From an uncultured Alphaproteobacteria bacterium (lineage in GTDB: Bacteria; Pseudomonadota; Alphaproteobacteria; RF32; CAG-239), in NCBI GenBank assembly GCA_944393225.1, contig CALXZK010000003.1:7853-71852 (forward strand): 64,000 nucleotides of DNA. The letters run 5' to 3'. Under the pieces are notes generated by a model. The model ran no database searches, had not been told where the DNA came from, and saw only the letters and a program-made list of their open reading frames with translations. Positions within the stretch are counted from its first letter, which is position 1, and every line of letters begins with the position of its first letter. The translations under genes were made by a program, and so were the position numbers. This document shows, one piece after another, positions 1-9,921 of the stretch.

Positions 1-1669
1 TTGGATAAAATATATAATGAGGTTCTACAATTACTTCACATAAAGCAGGACCATCAGAGGCTAAAACATCTTGTATCTTTTTATCAAGATTTTCTGCATC
101 TTTAATACAATAAGACTGAATACCAAATCCTTTTGCTATATTAATAAAATTAGGACAAATAACACCTGATGACTTGTCTGCCGCTGTAAGGCGTCCTTCA
201 AAGAAATTGGTTTGTGTTTGTTTCATAGAGATATAACCATCATTGTTAATAACAAAAATTTTAATAGGTAAATTATAATTTTTGATAGTTTGTAATTCCT
301 GCAAATTCATCATGATAGATCCGTCACCTGCCAAACAAACAACACGTTTTTTATTTCGAGCAAAACAAGCACCTATAGAAGCTGGTAAATCATACCCCAT
401 TGTTGCATTTCCTGAATTCCAAAACATTCGCATATTCTTTTTTATGCGGGCTATTTGAAAAGGAATGACACAAGCAGAGCCATTTCCCGTTACCACAGCA
501 TCTTCTTGTAAATTTTTAAACAAACAATCAATAAAATAATAAGGATTTATATTTTCTCCTATCTGCTGATACTCTGTTACGTTTTCAACAGCATATTTCT
601 GTTTAATATTTCGACAATACGTTAACCAATCATTATGAGGTTGAATATCAATCTTTTCCAACTCATACAATAAGGCCGGTAAAAAATCTTTTAAATCTGC
701 ATTAACAGCAATATCTGGAATAACCGTAGGTTTTTGCAGTTCAGCATTATCTATATCTACAACAATCTTTATTGCTTTATCAGCATAGCTTTCCCAATTA
801 TAACTAACTTGACGAATATTATTTCTTGTCCCTAAAAATAAAACGCAGTCTGAATTTTGCAAAATAAAATTACCTGCTCTTTGACCTATGGTTCCTATTC
901 TTCCCATATAGAATGGATAATTTTCATCTACAGTATCAACACCATTGAATGTTGTCAAAACAGGAGCGTTTATCTTTTCCGCTAATTTTTTCATTTGAGA
1001 AATGCTATCAGATAAACGTACACCATAACCAGATACAATTGATATGCGTTTTGCTGTTTTGATATGATTAACAATTGTGCTTAAATTAAGTTCTTTATGT
1101 ATCTCTGAAGGTGGAATAAACTCCTTTAAATTATTTTCATCAATCATACTGCTTTGAATATCTAATGGAATATCAAGCCATACTGGACCAAAACGTCCAT
1201 GTGTTGCTTCCCAAATAGCCTTATCTAAATGATATTTAATTTCTTCTGGCTTAACAACACATACCGCATATTTTGTAATTGGTTTTACTATAGAAATAAT
1301 ATCAACTTCTTGATCTCCTATCTGACGAATTTTTAGGTTTGGATAGGTCGCCATTAAAGTTGCTCTTTTAATTTGCCCAGAGATATAAAGTACTGGAACA
1401 GAATCTGTCCATTGTCCAAATACACCCGTAACAGCATTTAATGCCCCTGGTCCAGAAGTTGTGTTAACCACAGCCAATTTATTGTTATATCTGGCTTGTC
1501 CTTCTGCACAAAAAGCACACGCTTGTTCGTGATGATTGCAAATGTATGGAATATATTTGCCAAAGCTATCATTCAAATGCATTGCTCCACCACCGGGAAT
1601 TAAATAAACACGTTCTATTTCATAAACTTCTTTCAAACGTTTGGCGATATAATCACTGACTTTTATCAT
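1..1669 (-). CDS. Thiamine-diphosphate-dependent enzyme, acetolactate-synthase-large-subunit / YerE-like. The C-terminal end runs off the window, and the gene is absent from the supplied ORF track.
   Basis: My own translation of the minus strand from the ATG at 1669 reads MIKVSDYIAKRLKEVYEIERVYLIPGGGAMHLNDSFGKYIPYICNHHEQACAFCAEGQARYNNKLAVVNTTSGPGA... In the same frame at 300-420 it reads GNATMGYDLPASIGACFARNKKRVVCLAGDGSIMMNL, the ThDP-binding GDG...N region. At 2-60 it reads SDGPALCEVIVEPHYIFYP. The frame is consistent at all spots checked. Confidence 0.8.
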   Translation of the reverse strand, partial: MIKVSDYIAKRLKEVYEIERVYLIPGGGAMHLNDSFGKYIPYICNHHEQACAFCAEGQARYNNKLAVVNTTSGPGALNAVTGVFGQWTDSVPVLYISGQIKRATLMATYPNLKIRQIGDQEVDIISIVKPITKYAVCVVKPEEIKYHLDKAIWEATHGRFGPVWLDIPLDIQSSMIDENNLKEFIPPSEIHKELNLSTIVNHIKTAKRISIVSGYGVRLSDSISQMKKLAEKINAPVLTTFNGVDTVDENYPFYMGRIGTIGQRAGNFILQNSDCVLFLGTRNNIRQVSYNWESYADKAIKIVVDIDNAELQKPTVIPDIAVNADLKDFLPALLYELEKIDIQPHNDWLTYCRNIKQKYAVENVTEYQQIGENINPYYFIDCLFKNLQEDAVVTGNGSACVIPFQIARIKKNMRMFWNSGNATMGYDLPASIGACFARNKKRVVCLAGDGSIMMNLQELQTIKNYNLPIKIFVINNDGYISMKQTQTNFFEGRLTAADKSSGVICPNFINIAKGFGIQSYCIKDAENLDKKIQDVLASDGPALCEVIVEPHYIFYP

Positions 1670-1674
1670 TTTTA

Positions 1675-2733
1675 TTATCCTAACTGAGCTAAAACTTTTT
1701 TAACTTCATTTTCTTGCAAATCTAAAATTTTAGATGTCTCAAAATTGTCATCAAGCATAATCAATGCCATATTATTTCCTACGTTTTTCTTGTCTTGATG
1801 CATAGCTTGCACAATTTTGTTTTCATCTAAAACCGGCTTAGAAACTTTCAAAATTGGATATAAAATTTTATCTTCCAAAAATTTCAACTTATCTTTAGAT
1901 AATATTTTTCTATCCATACTAACTTTGTTTGCTAAAATCATACCCAAAACAACAGCTTGCCCATGCGGAATGGCAAAATTGGTAGCACTTTCAATTGCAT
2001 GACCAAAGCAATGTCCATAATTGAGCATATTTCTTTTTCCTGTATCAAATTCATCTGTTTCAATATAAGATTTTTTAATATTCAGACAATTATGGGTCAT
2101 TTTAGAAAGTGTGGCATTATCCAAAGCATCAATTTTCGGCAAAGCATCAATAAACTCCTGAGCTTTTTCTTTTCCAGCCATAATGTGCAATTTTGCCATT
2201 TCTCCGACGCCGGAATAAAAATCTTGAACATTTAAGCTCTTTAAAAATTCAGGATAAATATAAACTTCTTTCGGAGCATAAAAAGTACCAACCAAATTTT
2301 TAAAATGTTTAAAATTCAAAGATGTCTTTGCTCCGATACAACTATCAACTTGAGCCAATAATGTTGTCGGTACAAATATCCAATTTACTCCACGATATAA
2401 ACTTGAAGCTACAAAACCGGTTATATCTTGAATAATTCCGCCCCCAAAAGAGATAATCGTCATATTTTTACGAGGAGCAAATTGCATAATTTTCTCATAT
2501 ATTGCACAAACCGTATCAATATTTTTGATATCTTCACAAACCGGTTGAACAATTACTTTTTCCTGCGGAATTGAAGAAAGATGTGTGTTTTTATAAATAT
2601 TCCAAATATTTTCATCAATGACAAAAACACTATTTGGCATTTGCGCCAAATTTTTTATAAAATCAGCATTATCTTCAAAATTAACAGTATAATCTTTTAA
2701 ATTTGATTTTATAGTGATTTGATCTACACGCAT
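1675..2733 (-). CDS. 3-dehydroquinate synthase family protein (sugar-phosphate cyclase superfamily)
   Basis: GGGIIQDITGFVASSLYRGVNWIFVPTTLLAQVDSCIGAKTSLN matches the DHQS nucleotide/metal core (GGGxxxDxxGF...PTTLLAxVDSxxGGKTxxN). Downstream are NYGHCFGHAIE and HGQAVVLGM. The gene sits in a glycan operon, not an aromatic amino-acid context. Confidence 0.75.
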   Translation of the reverse strand: MRVDQITIKSNLKDYTVNFEDNADFIKNLAQMPNSVFVIDENIWNIYKNTHLSSIPQEKVIVQPVCEDIKNIDTVCAIYEKIMQFAPRKNMTIISFGGGIIQDITGFVASSLYRGVNWIFVPTTLLAQVDSCIGAKTSLNFKHFKNLVGTFYAPKEVYIYPEFLKSLNVQDFYSGVGEMAKLHIMAGKEKAQEFIDALPKIDALDNATLSKMTHNCLNIKKSYIETDEFDTGKRNMLNYGHCFGHAIESATNFAIPHGQAVVLGMILANKVSMDRKILSKDKLKFLEDKILYPILKVSKPVLDENKIVQAMHQDKKNVGNNMALIMLDDNFETSKILDLQENEVKKVLAQLG

Positions 2734-3383
2734 GAAAAACCTCCGTCAACAAATATGGTCTGCCCTGTTGTAAAAGAATTTTGCGGACTGGCCAAGAAAT
2801 AAACAAACTCGGCAATTTCTGTTACATTGCCCATTCTTTTAATAGGCAAATTATCTTCCAGAATTTTAATCTGTTCAGGTGTATTATTTTGATAAGTCAT
2901 TTCAGTAGCAATAAAACCCGGAGCAATGGCATTAACCAAAATATTAAACTTAGAAAGTTCTACTGCTGAAGCCGTGGTCAAACCTTTTATTCCGGCCTTA
3001 GCTATTGAATACATAATTCTACGTTCTTTTGAAAAATCGCACCAAATAGAAGCAAAATTAACAATACGCCCCCAATTTTTAGCTTTCATCATCGGTGCAA
3101 CATATTTAATTAACAAGGTCGAAGAAATCAAATTAACCTGTAACATCTCTTGTAAAGATATCTCATCCATTTCTTCTATAGATGCTAAATTATTAATCCC
3201 CGCGCAATTAACTAAAATATCTACATCAGTTAAATGTTTCATATAATTCTTTATGCTTTCTGTCGATGATAAATCCATTTCTTGTCGTGTCGGAGCGAAA
3301 ACCTCAATTTCTCGCTCACGAAAAAGTCGACAAATTTCTTTACCAATTCCTCTGGAACCACCTGTAATCAATGCCTTATACAT
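2724..3383 (-). CDS. Short-chain dehydrogenase/reductase (SDR)
   Basis: N-terminal TGGSRGIGKEI Rossmann motif, NCAGI, and the catalytic YSIAKAG (YxxxK). It overlaps the downstream gene by 10 nt. Confidence 0.8.
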   Translation of the reverse strand: MYKALITGGSRGIGKEICRLFREREIEVFAPTRQEMDLSSTESIKNYMKHLTDVDILVNCAGINNLASIEEMDEISLQEMLQVNLISSTLLIKYVAPMMKAKNWGRIVNFASIWCDFSKERRIMYSIAKAGIKGLTTASAVELSKFNILVNAIAPGFIATEMTYQNNTPEQIKILEDNLPIKRMGNVTEIAEFVYFLASPQNSFTTGQTIFVDGGFSCV

Positions 3384-4183
3384 TATTGAGCCTTTTGCTT
3401 ATTATATCTTTCTTCAATCATAGCTATACGTTTTGTTTCAGCATTTGCAAAACGAGAATAAAATTCTTTTTTGCATTGCATCCAGTTAAGCTCAAAGCCC
3501 ATCGCTTTGGTTAAAGCTTGTTCAACTTTTGCATCTGTTAAAGAATATTGTGCATCAAAAATAATGTTTCTGGTTTCAAAGCACTCTAAAACTTCTTTTG
3601 GAAGTTGACGGAAAAACTTTAGTGATTCACCGGAAACACCGCCGCCGACAAACAATTTTTTGCCATATTTTTGAGCTAATGATGCCATTTTTTCAGCATA
3701 AGACATCATTTCTTCAGAATTAACAAAACTACGGTCTTTGCCCATGGAACCTGAAAAATCCACTCTTCCCAAGACAATACCGTAAATGTCTTGAGCTTCT
3801 TTGATTTGCAACATTTCTTCAAGATTTTTAAAACCAGTAATGGTTTCAATATTAACCATAAATTTTGTATCGGCATATTCTTCATCAGAATAAATAACAT
3901 GGCTGGCTTCAATAAATTTTTTCAAAGCATAGGGAGTTTCTATCATCGGAGCTACAATTTTGTTCACACCCAAAACTTTGGCATCATGCATATCTCTTCT
4001 GGCCTCACATCCGCCAATTTTCATAGATACGGCAACACCGGCCTTAAAAGCAATGGAGGCAATGATTTGCGCCAATTCTCCGGTCAAACCTTCATCTTCA
4101 AAAGAAATTTTAATTCCTTTAACATGATGATTTTCTTTCAAATCTTTAAGCAATTCATACATATTCTTTTCATATTTATTCAT
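3383..4183 (-). CDS. HpcH/HpaI-type (class II, pyruvate-dependent) aldolase / citrate-lyase-beta-like TIM-barrel protein
   Basis: KIVAPMIETPYALKKFIEA and MVNIETITGFKNLEEML...GIVLGRVDFSGSMG resemble the conserved P-x-V-E and I-E-S/T...G-x-x-D-L segments of the HpcH_HpaI family. This is recognition by eye only. Confidence 0.55.
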   Translation of the reverse strand: MNKYEKNMYELLKDLKENHHVKGIKISFEDEGLTGELAQIIASIAFKAGVAVSMKIGGCEARRDMHDAKVLGVNKIVAPMIETPYALKKFIEASHVIYSDEEYADTKFMVNIETITGFKNLEEMLQIKEAQDIYGIVLGRVDFSGSMGKDRSFVNSEEMMSYAEKMASLAQKYGKKLFVGGGVSGESLKFFRQLPKEVLECFETRNIIFDAQYSLTDAKVEQALTKAMGFELNWMQCKKEFYSRFANAETKRIAMIEERYNKQKAQ

Positions 4184-4184
4184 T

Positions 4185-5069
4185 TTATTTATCCTCTAAT
4201 AGTTGTTTGTATTCTATGCTATCTTTATGCTTTTCATAATAATCATACAAATTTTTTACTGACTGGTAGATGGGTGTTAAACGAAGATTAGGAAACTCAC
4301 TTCTCAATCTGCTATTATCTCCATAATAATCTAAGCCATACCCATCTTTAGAAATTTGAATCTCAACGTCTTTGTGGCTGATTTCTTTTACCATTTCAGC
4401 TAATTGCTTAAGCTCAACAAAATTATCTGGACATACATTATAATGCTTATACTTAACTTCATTCTCAGTAAAAAATTCCAAAATTGGAGGTAAATCATTA
4501 ACATCTAAATAACTAAAACGGCGATTTTGTCTGCAAGTTATAGGTAAATCAAACAAAACCTTACAAATAGCATTTGAAATAAAACGAATGCTATAATCTT
4601 CGTATTTACCAAATATTCCAAAAATATTTAAATCTATGAAATTAGGAAGAGAATCTATTCTTTTTCCGACAACATATTTACAAAAACTATGGTCATCTTT
4701 GCCCATATTTTTATAAATATCATGTTCAGAAACACCTGAGTTATTTTGCGCTACATCATATATTGCACCACTTCCAGCATTAATAAATTTTCCATAAGAT
4801 GCACAGTTGCGAGCTAAGTTTTCAAAATTTCGGACATTGGTGTAAAATAAATTATTTAAATCAAGCGCATTTCTGTGCCCAGGTTTTATTGCAAAATGCC
4901 AAACAGCATCAAAATATTTGTCTTTAAAATAAGAATCAACCTCCTTAGTATCTGACCAATTAACTTCACTATGATGAGGTGTCTCAATGTCGTACTTTTG
5001 GGACAAATAACTCTCTAAAATATTTTTACCAATAAAACCATTAGCCCCTGTTAACAAAATCTTTTTCAT
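4185..5069 (-). CDS. NAD-dependent sugar epimerase/dehydratase/reductase (extended SDR)
   Basis: MKKILLTGANGFIGKNI Rossmann start. The ATG at 5069 is preceded by GGAG and overlaps the rfbG stop (TAATG). The track ORF starts 4 codons earlier, at 5081. Confidence 0.75.
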   Translation of the reverse strand: MKKILLTGANGFIGKNILESYLSQKYDIETPHHSEVNWSDTKEVDSYFKDKYFDAVWHFAIKPGHRNALDLNNLFYTNVRNFENLARNCASYGKFINAGSGAIYDVAQNNSGVSEHDIYKNMGKDDHSFCKYVVGKRIDSLPNFIDLNIFGIFGKYEDYSIRFISNAICKVLFDLPITCRQNRRFSYLDVNDLPPILEFFTENEVKYKHYNVCPDNFVELKQLAEMVKEISHKDVEIQISKDGYGLDYYGDNSRLRSEFPNLRLTPIYQSVKNLYDYYEKHKDSIEYKQLLEDK

Positions 5070-6160
5070 TACAAACTCCATTCTAAATTTTGTTTTTTGG
5101 CTTCAGATAAAAATTCGTCAATTTGCATTTGACTAAATGCATACATATCTGATTTTGTCGTGTAATGCTGCTTATACCATTCGGTCGTTACTTTAATGGC
5201 GGCATCTACATCATAAACAGGACGCACACCCAATACTTTATCTGCTTTTTCAATGTTTAATTGCAATAATGTTGCTTCATGTAAGCCATCAGATGAACCG
5301 ACTTCAACTTTGCCTTTTCCCCAAACATCAACCACTTTTTGTGCAACTTCACAAACCTTAACAACAGAAGATGCATAAGGACCAAAATTAAATCCATCGG
5401 CATATTTAGAACCTTGTTCAAACAACATTTGCCCTAAACGCAAATAGCCAACCAATGGTTCTAAGACAAATTGCCACGGTCTGGTAGCCAATGGATTGCG
5501 AATAAAAATGGTTTCACCTTGACGAATAGCGTTAATACAATCTGGAATTAAACGATCTTTTGCCCAATCTCCGCCACCGATAACATTTCCGGCGCGTCCG
5601 GTTCCCAGTGCAAAAGGTTTTCCGTCAGTTAAAAATGAGCGGCGATAAGAAGAGCTCAAAATCTCTGAACATCCTTTGGAAGAAGAATACATATCATATC
5701 CGCCCATCGGTTCATCTTCTTTATAACCTTCTTTTTTTTCTTTGTTTTCATAACATTTATCTGTGGTCACATTAACAAAAGCTTTAACTGAAGGTGTTTG
5801 ACGTGCCGCTTCTAAAACATTAAGTGTTCCGATTACATTTGTCTCATAAGTTAAAACAGGCTCGGCATAGGATAAGCGAACCAAAGGCTGTGCAGCCAAA
5901 TGAAAAACAAAATCAGGTTGGCATTTTTGCATAAATTGAGCCAATTTTTCTCTTTCTCTGATATCAGCAATCATTTCATCTTCAAGCAAGTCATGAATAT
6001 GCACAATATCATATAAAGATTCACTGCTGTCCGGCTTTAGAGAATAACCATAAACTTTTGCCCCTAATTTTTTTAAGAGCATTACTAACCAACAACCTTT
6101 AAAACCGCAATGTCCTGTAACAAAAACCTTTTTATCTCTATAAATATTATTAAAAGACAC
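5069..6160 (-). CDS. rfbG: CDP-glucose 4,6-dehydratase
   Basis: KVFVTGHCGFKGCWL (the family signature is VTGHTGFKGxWL). Length is about 360 aa. GTG start. It lies immediately downstream of the cytidylyltransferase. Confidence 0.85.
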   Translation of the reverse strand: MSFNNIYRDKKVFVTGHCGFKGCWLVMLLKKLGAKVYGYSLKPDSSESLYDIVHIHDLLEDEMIADIREREKLAQFMQKCQPDFVFHLAAQPLVRLSYAEPVLTYETNVIGTLNVLEAARQTPSVKAFVNVTTDKCYENKEKKEGYKEDEPMGGYDMYSSSKGCSEILSSSYRRSFLTDGKPFALGTGRAGNVIGGGDWAKDRLIPDCINAIRQGETIFIRNPLATRPWQFVLEPLVGYLRLGQMLFEQGSKYADGFNFGPYASSVVKVCEVAQKVVDVWGKGKVEVGSSDGLHEATLLQLNIEKADKVLGVRPVYDVDAAIKVTTEWYKQHYTTKSDMYAFSQMQIDEFLSEAKKQNLEWSL

Positions 6161-6163
6161 GGG

Positions 6164-6943
6164 TTAATCCTCCCACACTTTCCAAGGAGCATGACCTTCG
6201 GCCCAAATTTTATTTAACTCTTCTTTGTCTTTCAGCATATCCATCGGACGCCAAAAACCACGATGTTTAAAGGCATTGAGCTGTCCATCATTAGCCAAAC
6301 TTTTTAAAGGTTTCTGTTCCCAAATAACATCATCTCCATCGGGGATATAATCAAAAATTTGAGGTTCGCAAACAAAGAACCCTCCGTTTATCCAAGCATC
6401 TTCATTTTTGGGCTTTTCTTGGAAATTTGAAACCCTCATATCTTCTTCAACTTTTAACACGCCAAAACGACCTTCAGGTTGAATGGCTGTCAATGTGCAA
6501 TATTTTCCGCTTAGCTTATGAAACTTAATTAACTCATTAATATTAACATCTGAAACACCATCTCCATAAGTTAACATAAATGGTTCATTGCCAATAAAAT
6601 CTTTTATTTTTTTAATTCGACCACCAGTCATTGTATTACGTCCGGTATAAAAGAGTGTAACTTTCCATGGCTCAGCCTCGGTTTGATGCACCTCAACATT
6701 ATTTGTAGCCAAATCAACCGTAACATTTGAATTATTCATATAGTAGTTCACAAAATAGTCTTTAATAACTTCTTGTTTATAGCCGGTCAGAACAACAAAT
6801 TCATTAAAACCATAATGAGAATAAATTTTCATTATATGCCACAAAATCGGATATCCACCAATTCCAACCATCGGCTTGGGTCTAACACCTGTTTCTTCTC
6901 CTAAGCGAGTTCCGAGCCCTCCGGCTAAAATTACAACTTTCAT
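6164..6943 (-). CDS. rfbF: Glucose-1-phosphate cytidylyltransferase
   Basis: MKVVILAGGLGTRLGEETGVRPKPMVGIGGYPILWHIMKIYSHYGFNEFVVLTGYK is near-canonical for RfbF/DdhA. A GGAGAG Shine-Dalgarno lies upstream. Confidence 0.9.
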   Translation of the reverse strand: MKVVILAGGLGTRLGEETGVRPKPMVGIGGYPILWHIMKIYSHYGFNEFVVLTGYKQEVIKDYFVNYYMNNSNVTVDLATNNVEVHQTEAEPWKVTLFYTGRNTMTGGRIKKIKDFIGNEPFMLTYGDGVSDVNINELIKFHKLSGKYCTLTAIQPEGRFGVLKVEEDMRVSNFQEKPKNEDAWINGGFFVCEPQIFDYIPDGDDVIWEQKPLKSLANDGQLNAFKHRGFWRPMDMLKDKEELNKIWAEGHAPWKVWED

Positions 6944-7673
6944 TTTCTCTCCATCCTATTAATTGTATAATTTTTTGTATAAAAGTCTTTTGTGGCAACA
7001 ATGATTTTCTTATTTTGTCTGTTGCCATTTTCATTTTTTGGTTATTTTTTTTAGACTCATTTGTTTCATGATCTCGGTATCTGAATAAAATTTCAGGAAC
7101 ATTATGAAAACTTGTCTTTCCTACCAAACGACACCACAATGCATAATCCTCAGACGGTGAAAATTCGTCTTCATATTTTAGATGATTTTCAATAAGTACT
7201 GATTTTCTTATCATGGCGGCAGGATGCAACAACGGACATGAATCTTTCAGAGCTTTGATAATTTGTTTGTTATTTTCAGGTTTTTTCTTGATTGTAAGAT
7301 TAGGAAAACGTTCATACCAACAACTCACTACCCCACATTCCGGATGAGCATCAAGATAAGCTACTTCTTTTTCAAAACGGTGTGGCAAAGAAATATCATC
7401 ATGATCCATCACGGCAATATATTCACCAGATGTCAAATCAAGGAGCTTATTTCTTGTTCCAGAAATTCCTAAATTTTTTTCATTTCTAAAATATTTAATA
7501 CGATTATCGGCATAAGATTGGATGATTCTCTCACAATCTTTATCTTCAGGACAATCATCAACAATTAAAAATTCAAAATCTGTATATGTTTGATTAAGAA
7601 TAGATTCTATACATTCTTTCAAGTATTCTGACTTAGTTTTATAAACGGCAAGACAAACAGAAACTTTTGGCAT
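6882..7673 (-). CDS. Family 2 glycosyltransferase
   Basis: VSVCLAVYKTKSEYLKECIESILNQTYTDFEFLIVDDCPED (GT2 DxD region). The C-terminal tail reads 62 nt into rfbF. Confidence 0.85.
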   Translation of the reverse strand: MPKVSVCLAVYKTKSEYLKECIESILNQTYTDFEFLIVDDCPEDKDCERIIQSYADNRIKYFRNEKNLGISGTRNKLLDLTSGEYIAVMDHDDISLPHRFEKEVAYLDAHPECGVVSCWYERFPNLTIKKKPENNKQIIKALKDSCPLLHPAAMIRKSVLIENHLKYEDEFSPSEDYALWCRLVGKTSFHNVPEILFRYRDHETNESKKNNQKMKMATDKIRKSLLPQKTFIQKIIQLIGWRENESCNFSRRARNSLRRRNRC

Positions 7674-8261
7674 CTATTTATCTCCTCGGCTAAAAGAAAT
7701 TCCGTGTCTTCTGGCAAAAGCGTAGATTGATGCACGGTTAATACCTAATTGTCTGGCTATTTCTGACTTTGAAATACCATCATCAAGCATTTGCAAAATT
7801 TTTTCTGAGTTGTTTTCTAATTTTGATTTGACTTTTGCACCGAACGGGCGACCAAGTTTTTTGCCTTCTCTTTTGCGTTGACTTAAAACTTTTCTTGTGG
7901 ATTGTGAAATTAAATGACTGCGAATATCAATAGCAACATCCATCCCTTTGAAAAAATCTTCCGTCAAGTTGAACTTGTCAAAACTATAACCATCTTCAAT
8001 CGAAATTAGTTTCAGATTCCTTTCTTGACAAAATTGAAGATTTTCTTTGATATCTTGTAAATAAGGCCCAATATTGCTGATTTTATTAATAAGGATACCT
8101 TCACAATCGGCTTGAATAATGCTTTTAACATTTTCAAAATTATTGCCTGTATGAACACACCCCATCACAAAGCCATGTTCTTTTGCAAAAGAGTTAAGGC
8201 TTTGATATTGATCAGCGTAATCTGCCTGATCTTGATTATTTGGTATGTATCCAACAAACAT
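7674..8261 (-). CDS. Serine-recombinase (resolvase/invertase) homolog with substituted catalytic residues. It is predicted to be non-catalytic and DNA-binding.
   Basis: MFVGYIPNNQDQ aligns with the MxxGYIRVSTxxQ seen in the neighbouring ORF, so the Arg and the Ser nucleophile are replaced by P and N. KISNIGP stands in place of the D-R-L-G-R motif. The E-helix (SQSTRKVLSQRKREGKKLGRP) and the C-terminal HTH (SKSEIARQLGINRASIY) are retained. The ORF is intact and its stop abuts the GT2 start. I prefer the ATG at 8261; the track gives a TTG at 8270. Confidence 0.7.
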   Translation of the reverse strand: MFVGYIPNNQDQADYADQYQSLNSFAKEHGFVMGCVHTGNNFENVKSIIQADCEGILINKISNIGPYLQDIKENLQFCQERNLKLISIEDGYSFDKFNLTEDFFKGMDVAIDIRSHLISQSTRKVLSQRKREGKKLGRPFGAKVKSKLENNSEKILQMLDDGISKSEIARQLGINRASIYAFARRHGISFSRGDK

Positions 8262-8372
8262 TCGGCGCAATCTTCAAAAATCAGCAATTTTGCATATAAT
8301 TTTGAAGACATAACTGCTTATATCGATGAAAAATCTTGATTTTCTTAAAGTTAACATAAAAAATTTTTTATC

Positions 8373-8400
8373 TTGCAATTCTAATTTATCACTATATGAT
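8373..8400 (+). promoter_or_regulatory. Candidate sigma70-type promoter for the invertase gene
   Basis: TTGCAA (8373-8378), 16-nt spacer, TATGAT (8395-8400). A second palindromic TTGCAA at 8403-8408 with TAGAAT (complement of 8378-8383, 19-nt spacer) could be the divergent promoter for the glycan operon. This is sequence inspection only. Confidence 0.3.
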
Positions 8401-8524
8401 AGTTGCAAATAATATATAAAATAAACGCTCATTTTTGAACGTGATTTATTTGAAGCGTTCTTTTCTTATTGTTTTTTCTCTGTTTTTATAAATAACTTTA
8501 GAAACAAATTTATAAGGACAGAAA

Positions 8525-9112
8525 ATGATTTATGGATATATCAGGGTCAGCACAGACCATCAAAATGTTGCAAATCAACATCACGAAATTGAAATTTTTT
8601 CTCAAAAACAGAATCTGACAATCGATAAATGGGTTGAGGAAGTTATTTCTTCCAGAAAGCCTTTGCAAGAAAGGAAACTAGGAAAACTCCTAAAAAAGCT
8701 CAAAAAAGGAGATATTTTAATTGCAACCGAGCTCTCCAGACTCGGAAGGAATCTGCTTGAAGTTATGAGTATTTTACAAAAATGTCTGGAAAAAGATTGT
8801 CAAATTTGGACTTTGAAAGAAAATTATCGATTAGGAGCTGATATACAATCAAAAGTTTTAGCTTTTGCCTTTTCTTTAGCCAGTGAAATTGAAAGACAAC
8901 TAATTTCAGAACGCACAAAAATGTCTTTACAACGATTAAAAAACGAAGGCAAACATTTGGGAAGACCATTAGGAGCATCTTCTCAAAAACTACAAAAACA
9001 TCATGATAAAATCAAAAAACTTTGGGATAAAAATATTCCAAAATCACAAATAGCTAAAATGTTTGGTTGTACATGGCTTACAATTCATAGATATATAAAA
9101 AATAATTTTTAA
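8525..9112 (+). CDS. Serine recombinase, small DNA-invertase/resolvase type (Hin/Gin/Tn3-resolvase-like)
   Basis: MIYGYIRVSTDHQ (catalytic Ser), ATELSRLGRN, the E-helix ...ISERTKMSLQRLKNEGKHLGRP, and the C-terminal HTH KSQIAKMFGCTWLTIHRYI. An AAGGA Shine-Dalgarno lies upstream. Confidence 0.85.
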   Translation: MIYGYIRVSTDHQNVANQHHEIEIFSQKQNLTIDKWVEEVISSRKPLQERKLGKLLKKLKKGDILIATELSRLGRNLLEVMSILQKCLEKDCQIWTLKENYRLGADIQSKVLAFAFSLASEIERQLISERTKMSLQRLKNEGKHLGRPLGASSQKLQKHHDKIKKLWDKNIPKSQIAKMFGCTWLTIHRYIKNNF

Positions 9113-9122
9113 TTAACTCATG

Positions 9123-9157
9123 AAGACTTTTTCTAATTTTGGAAGAAGTCTTTTTTT
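9123..9157 (+). terminator. Rho-independent terminator after the invertase gene
   Basis: AAGACTTTTTCT / GGAAGAAGTCTT forms a 12-bp stem (two G-U pairs) with a 6-nt loop, followed by TTTTT. Confidence 0.65.
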
Positions 9158-9392
9158 GTAAATTGTTTTTCTTATAAAAATTTTAAGAAATAATTATATC
9201 AATTGACTTTATGCAATTATTTTTTTGAATTTGATGCTGAAACTCACTTTTGTTCGTTTCATCATAAACTTCACAATCTGAAGATTGCTCGTTTTTTTTC
9301 TTTGTTTTTGTTGTTTTTTTGGGGTAAAAAATTAAATAAAAAATTTTAAATAATCAATTTTAGATAATTTTTTATAATTAATTTATTTAATG

Positions 9393-9464
9393 TATCCAAG
9401 TTAGATTTGCTCTTTTTACCCTAAAACAAGGGTAAAAAAATATAGCATCCAAGTTGAGTTTGCT
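9393..9464 (+). repeat. Direct repeat - perfect hairpin - direct repeat module
   Basis: tATCCAAGTTagaTTTGCT (9393-9411) and cATCCAAGTTgagTTTGCT (9446-9464) match at 15/19 positions. They flank TTTTTACCCT-aaaaca-AGGGTAAAAA (9413-9438), a perfect 10-bp stem. GGGTAAAAAA also occurs at about 9321-9330. Confidence 0.6.
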
Positions 9465-9921
9465 TTCTATTTAGGGTATATCATTTCTGAAATCCGCATA
9501 CCGCCAATGCGAACCTTCACCCAGCTTTTCCGGTAGGTATACTATGTATCCGAATAGAACCAAATACATAATACTGAGGTTGTTAATGAGCACAAACAGA
9601 GCCTCGATTTCTAACTGACATCATCAGCCGTGTCCTATTTGTTTGTCGCCGACCGTCTTTGGAGGAGTTACTTTGCGACACTTACACCAATGGGTAAGAA
9701 TTTCATAGGTTTTCAGTTGGTTCCCTGCTTGAGGGTGCTTCATTTAAGCCTGTTTCCCCGTTTTAATAATATGATAAGGCTATCATAATTGGTATGTCTA
9801 TTAATATTTATTAAGATACCATAGTCATTATTCATTTTGCAAAAATAAAAACGTAAAAAGTTTTGTTTTTTTCAAAAAAAATTTAGCAAAACTAGGATAA
9901 AAAGGGCCGTATTGTATCAAC

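Follow-up and report, generated by a model that had tools for sequence, protein, structure and literature searches.

Why should a surface-polysaccharide operon begin with a serine recombinase that has lost its catalytic residues? The question is raised by a 64,000-nucleotide stretch of DNA from an uncultured Alphaproteobacteria bacterium (contig CALXZK010000003.1 of assembly GCA_944393225.1), here called the window, in which an intact small serine invertase gene (8525-9112) lies back-to-back with a divergent paralog (7674-8261) that is the first gene of a glycan operon. A 141-bp invertible promoter segment, an inverton, is almost certainly present between the invertase and the glycan operon, and the paralog is catalytically dead and conserved by selection. 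We lean towards the reading that the two genes, together with the gap that separates them, constitute a phase-variation module, with the dead paralog as a regulator of the switch that is coupled to its state. The loci and contigs compared with the window are given by L numbers.

An Invertible Promoter Segment Upstream of the Glycan Operon

The segment sits in the 263-bp gap between the dead gene and the invertase, and is flanked by hix-like inverted sites (Table 1), one proximal to the dead gene (IRR) and one proximal to the invertase (IRL). Repeat arms were found by a position-aware search upstream of the dead genes, and all 15 loci have one such inverted-repeat pair, at approximately -180 and -30 from the ATG. 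The crossover sites of serine recombinases need matching central dinucleotides. The two arms of any one locus share their central dinucleotide as well as the base that follows it, and among the lineages the dinucleotide varies between AG, AC, TT, AT, and TC. Since the dinucleotides match within each locus, as serine recombinases require, the repeats are supported as crossover sites.

Both orientations of the segment are represented among the relatives. When compared in inverted orientation to 8286-8426 of the window, L058 and L059 are identical at 138/141 and 133/141 positions, respectively, while the direct orientation gives 95-98/141. These two loci encode a 100% identical invertase protein, and their invertase-side flank is identical at 299-300 of 300 nucleotides. 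In L060 the segment has the same orientation as in the window. Within the P0009 lineage (L048-L057) it lies one way in two of the ten contigs (L049 and L054) and the opposite way in the other eight. The element thus has the properties of an inverton, inverted repeats around a short segment that is observed in both orientations, and one inverton was counted within the 64-kb window. An earlier note on this DNA, made from the sequence of the window, had proposed recombinase-linked control of glycan expression, possibly as phase variation. The finding of the promoter segment in both orientations bears this out; the inverton itself, that is, the two crossover sites with a promoter between them, had been missed, as had the relation of the active enzyme to the Mpi family.

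A conserved motif, TTG[CA]AA-16-TA[TA]GAT, is found inside the segment in all lineages and corresponds to the putative sigma-70-like promoter P1 of the window. P1 points at the invertase here, and the window therefore probably displays the OFF orientation of the glycan operon, as far as can be judged from the sequence. In L059, and also in L004-7, P1 faces the dead gene. A counterpart in L049 and L048, TTGACT-16-TAGTAT (9/12), moves with the segment. The outer half of each repeat also contains TTCAAA, which combines with a -10-like hexamer at either end of the segment into hybrid promoter-like sites whose direction flips on inversion. They are found at 8273-8300 (+) and 8439-8411 (-) in the window and at 1415-1388 and 1249-1277 in L059, the best being TTCAAA-16-TATAAT (10/12); these hybrid sites are not conserved in the other lineages.

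Other candidate boundaries were considered. A partner of the 20-nt leader was sought in the whole window, allowing up to three mismatches, and none was found; the two arms share only about 13 nt. The I3 repeat (8339-8371 / 9336-9368), which flanks the invertase in a Hin-like layout, was rejected, the true boundaries lying elsewhere, and the generic repeat finder gave mostly AT-rich chance pairs.

Some further features of the region were observed. L009 (1.3 kb; 1-360) joins GC-rich foreign DNA containing a terminator hairpin to the dead gene at 8285/8286, which is the IRR crossover, and the 8 nt before the junction, AAATAAAC, resemble the inner half of IRL. L009 is either an assembly chimera or the result of recombination with another site. 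On the side of the dead gene (the 8100-8285 side of the window) L058 and L059 are identical to the window at only 267-278 of 300 nucleotides, as opposed to 299-300 on the invertase side, and L058 carries a different polysaccharide cluster downstream. Swapping of glycan clusters seems to break at the inverton or at the dead gene. In IRL (8425-8442, minus strand, towards the dead gene) a weakly scoring intrinsic-terminator-like hairpin precedes a T run, and this hairpin might insulate the operon from upstream transcription.

The Invertase and Its Catalytically Dead Paralog

The protein encoded by 8525-9112 has a full-length match to Pfam Resolvase (108 bits, model positions 1-144 of 145) and a match to HTH_7, a helix-turn-helix (HTH) domain, and its catalytic motifs YIRVS and ELSRLGR are intact. 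The alignment to NCBIfam NF009949 ("master DNA invertase Mpi family") spans residues 1-194 of the protein and positions 1-196 of the 203 in the model, with a score of 269.6 bits against a cut-off of 272. The dead paralog obtains 77 bits with the same model, over residues 55-188.

The two proteins align end-to-end with 26% identity (E 9e-19). Pfam Resolvase recognizes the dead paralog at the threshold only (23.3 bits) and in its C-terminal half only, while HTH_7 scores 25.8 bits. The residues were compared by aligning it to gamma-delta resolvase, Tn3 resolvase, and the neighbouring invertase, using gamma-delta numbering. The equivalent of Arg8 is Pro7 and that of the Ser10 nucleophile is Asn9, while Asp67, Arg68, and Arg71, which lie in ELSRLGR in the partner, are replaced by K-I-S-N-I-G-P. 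The loop equivalent to that of Arg45 is missing altogether (8-residue gap). An R-x-S in register was found neither in the close family (19 sequences) nor in 30 distant relatives.

What the dead paralog retains is the E-helix, the EGKxLGRP (GRP minor-groove) arm, and the HTH, the latter two being invariant or almost so across the family. An AlphaFold2 model built with 19 homologs has a predicted local distance difference test (pLDDT) score of 86.4, and its best matches in the PDB according to Foldseek are resolvase-DNA complexes of Tn3, gamma-delta, and Sin, all with probability 1.0. The fold, the E-helix, and the C-terminal HTH of the small serine recombinases are thus present in the product of 7674-8261 and the catalytic residue set is absent. 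Judged by its sequence, this protein is a structural relative of the small serine recombinases and not an enzyme. The earlier note had described 8525-9112 as a small serine recombinase and the divergent 7674-8261 as having the same fold along its whole length with the chemistry gone. The domain scores uphold the former, and alignment, AlphaFold2, and Foldseek agree on the latter; the alignment confirms the losses of Ser and Arg, with no Ser nucleophile in register.

The recognition helix of the dead paralog reads INRASIYAF and that of the partner CTWLTIHRY. Within the dead family the helix follows the pattern I/V-[NST]-R-x-[ST]-[IV]-[YFL]. The invertases of the Alphaproteobacterial group (9040-9112 of the window; L013, L016, L021, and L048) have the unusual recognition helix C[TS]WLT[IV]HRY, paired with repeats of the TTCAAAAA type. 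Other Mpi-like invertases have different helices, for instance VNRSTL or ISVSTIY, and the invertases adjoining dead paralogs in L065, L066, and L069 have other helices together with ACGxxCGT-type repeats.

Selection and Distribution of the Dead Paralog

Purifying selection acts on the dead paralog, and the gene is not decaying. Pairwise ratios of nonsynonymous to synonymous substitution rates (dN/dS) over the 15 loci range from 0.07 to 0.29 and are mostly 0.09-0.2, with dS up to about 1.9, and they are similar to those of the active invertase. A database search gave 22 relatives with 47-100% identity, most of them 193-201 amino acids long and none with the catalytic residues. The word-index homology search with a diverse alignment gave nine proteins. 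When 1.84 billion representatives were searched with a profile, the dead signature, with no R-x-S and with N-I-x-x-L-G-x-S-L where ELSRLGR is expected, turned up outside the close family in dozens of clusters whose members are about 190-200 amino acids long.

The metagenome-assembled genomes (MAGs) of the close relatives are labelled uncultured Alphaproteobacteria or Azospirillaceae, and one contig was binned elsewhere. Every relative examined has the dead gene at the head of a polysaccharide cluster, always as the first gene after IRR, while the gene content of the cluster varies by locus. The proposal in the earlier note that the dead gene is a retained, co-transcribed first gene of the operon thus agrees with the gene order, and its retention with a dN/dS of about 0.1-0.2 and with relatives that are intact except for L020.

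The position of the invertase is more variable: it may be divergent, tandem, or absent from the vicinity. Orthologs with 65-85% identity are found divergently, about 230-265 bp upstream, in L013-16, L018, L021-23, and L048-57, while no intact invertase open reading frame (ORF) is found upstream in L001/L012, L011, L004-7/L017, L019, and L020. The upstream region in L019 still starts like the 5' end of an invertase gene. In the MAG BRZ_CI_bin98, which has two loci (L016 and L020), the invertase is found at only one of them. Loci without an adjoining invertase (L001, L011, L004-7, and L020) keep the same repeats. The back-to-back layout is thus common and not obligatory; that it is specific to the window was rejected, as tblastn places an invertase beside the dead gene in many lineages.

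Five distant members (L063-65, L066, L067, L068, and L069) were looked up. The dead gene heads a polysaccharide operon in all five, and in four of them an active Mpi-like invertase is located directly upstream on the same strand. All five have in between a pair of 13-20-nt inverted repeats with the arms 110-125 bp apart. These repeats (AAACGAACGTTTC, AAACGACCGTTAA, AACGAACATTAGA, and GAACGCTAAAT) resemble the Mpi consensus of Bacteroides fragilis, ARACGTTCGTN. In Mpi-like invertase loci of other phyla (L024-L042) no dead paralog was found within 10 kb. In L068 a 339-residue protein (5596-6615) with many faint HTH hits is encoded between the dead paralog and the glycosyltransferases, and prophage tail genes and an HU gene are located upstream of the invertase.

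The conserved feature is accordingly the order repeat, promoter, repeat, dead paralog, and glycan genes. Because this order is kept while the position of the invertase varies, the defining property of the dead paralog would be that it is made only in ON cells.

The family can be recognized by a length of about 195 amino acids, M-[IF]-x-G-Y without R-x-S, N-I-x-x-L-G in place of E-L-S-R-L-G-R, and EGKKLGRP. Such a signature could help to pick out glycan loci with phase variation in metagenomic data.

A Proposed Role for the Dead Paralog

The Mpi-family invertase 8525-9112 is the candidate enzyme for inverting 8286-8426 between the two hix-like AG sites. In one orientation P1 would drive the dead paralog and the glycan operon (ON), and in the opposite orientation, as in the window, it would face the invertase gene, leaving the glycan operon OFF. 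The dead paralog, predicted to be unable to cut DNA, would then be made only in ON cells, where it would bind at or near the recombination sites, or bind the invertase. In this way it would change how often its own locus and sister loci invert, the likeliest effect being a damping of re-inversion that holds the ON state. That the paralog modulates the switch in this manner, as a lock or by coordinating sister loci, is put forward tentatively. With a similar degree of reserve it may be suggested that the dead Mpi paralogs are a widespread and hitherto undescribed class of pseudo-recombinase regulatory subunits that feed the ON state back onto a serine invertase. They would then provide a lock or allow expression of one locus at a time, giving the switch a memory, and would be the first natural dominant-negative or architectural paralogs of a serine invertase.

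Several observations weigh against this reading. Each contig shows one orientation, and the evidence for switching is a comparison between assembled contigs. The assignment of ON and OFF rests on a promoter matching the consensus at 9/12 positions, and other promoter-like hexamers are found in this AT-rich DNA. The distant lineages have their invertase in tandem and not divergent, and a scheme where the OFF orientation drives the invertase is for that reason not general. In L020, the second dead-paralog locus of BRZ_CI_bin98 and one with no adjoining invertase, a premature stop leaves an ORF (1811-2266) of 151 amino acids; either the copy is truncated or the assembly may be in error here. Finally, the recognition helices of the dead paralog and its partner differ, and this makes it less economical to assume that the two proteins simply compete for the same half-sites. 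The dead paralog may instead, given its helix sequence, bind a different site, or the invertase.

The alternative that survives best, although we consider it unlikely, is that the dead paralog serves the long glycan operon as a transcription factor or antiterminator, a positional analogue of UpxY/UpxZ with no effect on recombination. Its place as the first gene of the operon at every locus would suit such a function, as would a canonical HTH_7 that, being unlike the recognition helix of the partner, suggests a different DNA target. It also has a precedent in Bacteroides, where the Mpi-switched loci start with transcription regulators (PMC10403206). A plain HTH regulator would, however, have no use for the whole catalytic-domain scaffold and the E-helix, which are under selection. 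Moreover, the dead copies of the two loci in BRZ_CI_bin98 are nearly identical (dN 0.05), so that a locus-specific hierarchy like that of UpxY/UpxZ is unlikely, and no conserved operator was found besides the inverted repeats and the promoter.

Regulation of an active switch also presupposes that there is one. The two orientations could be fixed strain differences that stem from rare past inversions, and that every assembled contig has a single orientation agrees with this. We find it very improbable, since two lineages have sequences that are nearly identical and yet show both states, every lineage keeps the core dinucleotides of its arms matched, and an intact invertase under selection adjoins. 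The assemblies furthermore break precisely at the crossovers, as expected of mixed populations: of three independent contigs that end at a crossover point, L008 and L010 start exactly at 8285, 24 nt upstream of the ATG of the dead gene, and the Logan contig L062 starts at the IRL crossover, while a fourth contig, L009, changes to unrelated sequence at the base where L008 and L010 start.

The intact fold and E-helix might also suggest that 7674-8261 still encodes an enzyme, with a non-canonical nucleophile. There is no conserved Ser, Thr, or Tyr at or near the nucleophile position, and the three Arg residues as well as the Arg45 loop are absent from all 49 aligned sequences, which makes this highly improbable. 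Least probable of all is that the operon merely carries a decaying pseudogene with it, although the premature stop in L020 might be taken as a sign of this. The dN/dS is low at dS values up to about 1.9, and the length is kept both in over 20 clusters that share 47-92% identity and in dozens of clusters that are more distant.

Comparison With Known Switches

The encounters of gut bacteria with phages and with the immune system are determined by surface polysaccharides that vary in phase, for which Mpi of Bacteroides is the standard model. The locus described here is of this known kind, an Mpi-type polysaccharide inverton, with the dead paralog as a conserved component that we have not found described. 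Full-text literature searches gave no description of a catalytically dead, inactive, or pseudo serine invertase paralog as part of a switch. Mpi-type switching is extended here to uncultured Alphaproteobacteria and further lineages. Should the dead copy modulate inversion, a stochastic switch would gain memory or coordination without a UpxY/UpxZ layer, and the protein would be a natural regulator for engineered serine-recombinase circuits.

The master invertase Mpi of B. fragilis and the invertible promoters of its capsular polysaccharide (CPS) operons were reported by Coyne et al. (2003), as recounted in PMC8375218 and PMC10403206, and the consensus of the Mpi repeats is given above (PMC8375218). 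In both systems the small serine invertase is assigned to one NCBIfam family, the one in the window scoring slightly below the cut-off, and there are short inverted repeats around a 140-190 bp promoter segment directly upstream of polysaccharide operons. In both, loci without their own invertase bear the same repeats, which suggests that the invertase may act in trans. The distant relatives share in addition repeats fitting or resembling ARACGTTCGTN (L066, L069, and L063-67). Repeats of that type are not found at the locus of 8525-9112, where they read TTCAAAAAT[GC]AGC, and are hix-like (TTCAAAAA..) and not ACGTTCGT. The system further differs from that of Bacteroides in its host, an uncultured Alphaproteobacteria bacterium, in an invertase that has an unusual recognition helix and is usually encoded beside the switch, and in the first switched gene, which is a dead invertase copy and not UpxY/UpxZ.

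The UpxY antiterminators, which are NusG-like, and the UpxZ trans-inhibitors are encoded by the first genes of phase-variable CPS operons in Bacteroides (PMC10403206). The dead paralog has the same position and would likewise be made only when the locus is ON. It has a resolvase fold, whereas UpxY has a NusG-like (KOW) fold, and the analogy is limited to its place in the operon; the near-identity of dead copies within a genome makes a locus-specific hierarchy unlikely.

In Salmonella Hin/hix and in Gin/Cin/Pin, as here (TCTTCAAAAATC-AG-...), two A-tract half-sites surround a central dinucleotide, hixL having the form TTCTTGAAAACC-AA-..., and inversion moves a promoter. Systems of the Hin/Gin type have the invertase gene inside the segment and a Fis-bound enhancer, whereas the invertase gene here is outside the invertible segment, beyond IRL. 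To our knowledge, no dead paralog is known in the Hin, Gin, Cin, or Pin systems.

Resolvase dimers at the accessory sites of res (sites II and III of Tn3/gamma-delta and site II of Sin) shape and regulate the synapse without catalysing exchange. These proteins, the best structural matches of the predicted model, share with the dead paralog a resolvase-fold, DNA-binding scaffold; there one active protein has both roles, while here a separate gene encodes the catalysis-dead form. A state-dependent feedback, where the switch determines by its state whether a recombination protein is expressed, would also be shared with FimB/FimE-fimS of Escherichia coli, but FimB and FimE are tyrosine recombinases and both are catalytically active.

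Layout of the Locus

The features are collected in Table 1. The Pfam labels of the operon genes were read on L008, whose GT2 and nucleotidyltransferase proteins are 100% identical to those of the window; the L008 contig extends past these genes to a TPP enzyme and further GT2 genes.

Table 1. Coordinates of the switch, the recombinase genes, and the adjoining operon in the window.
Feature	Position	Strand	Remarks
Putatively switched polysaccharide (glycan) operon	1..7673	-	Runs off the start of the window; from the ORF list
DHQ-synthase-like	1675-2733	-	Label transferred from L008 by gene order and length
SDR	2724-3383	-	Label transferred from L008 by gene order and length
HpcH/HpaI aldolase	3383-4183	-	Label transferred from L008 by gene order and length
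Epimerase	4185-5081	-	Label transferred from L008 by gene order and length
NDP-sugar dehydratase/epimerase	5069-6160	-	Label transferred from L008 by gene order and length
Sugar-1-P nucleotidyltransferase	6164-6943	-	Pfam label from locus L008
GT2	6882-7673	-	Pfam label from locus L008
Catalytically dead Mpi-like serine-recombinase paralog, 195 aa	7674..8261	-	First operon gene; alignments, fold, dN/dS
IRR, gene-proximal site, TCTTCAAAAATC-AG-CAATTTTGCATA	8271..8296		Central dinucleotide 8283-8284; outer half 10 nt upstream of the dead gene ATG
Invertible promoter segment, 141 bp	8286..8426		Inverted matches in L058 and L059
Sigma-70-like promoter P1, TTGCAA-16-TATGAT	8373..8400	+	Inside the segment, points to the invertase; function predicted from consensus only
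IRL, invertase-proximal site, CGTTCAAAAATG-AG-CGTTTATTTTATA	8415..8441		Central dinucleotide 8428-8429; sequence as read on the minus strand
Conserved palindrome/hairpin, TTTATAAATAAC...AAATTTATAAGG	8485..8517	+	Just upstream of the invertase Shine-Dalgarno
Mpi-family small serine invertase, 195 aa	8525..9112	+	YIRVS, ELSRLGR, and HTH; Pfam, NF009949

The stop of the dead gene directly adjoins the start of the GT2 gene, and the genes downstream are packed or overlapping. The earlier description of every junction as 5 nt or less, or overlapping, holds as regards the tight packing, while one overlap exceeds this size: the GT2 and nucleotidyltransferase genes share 62 nt (6882-6943), and the same overlap is called in L008. 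The Rfam scan gave three tRNAs and nothing else.

The palindrome upstream of the invertase is kept in all lineages with a divergent invertase, with wobble-compatible changes in L016 and L021, and might act on the invertase gene as an operator or by controlling its translation. To the right of the invertase, 9113-9920 is 800 nt of AT-rich non-coding DNA containing a direct repeat, ATCCAAGTTAGATTTGCT / ATCCAAGTTGAGTTTGCT, at about 9393-9460, and a TACCCTAAAACAAGGGTA hairpin. This flank differs between strains: in L058 the divergence begins directly behind the stop of the invertase gene, and in L059 about 200 nt further on.

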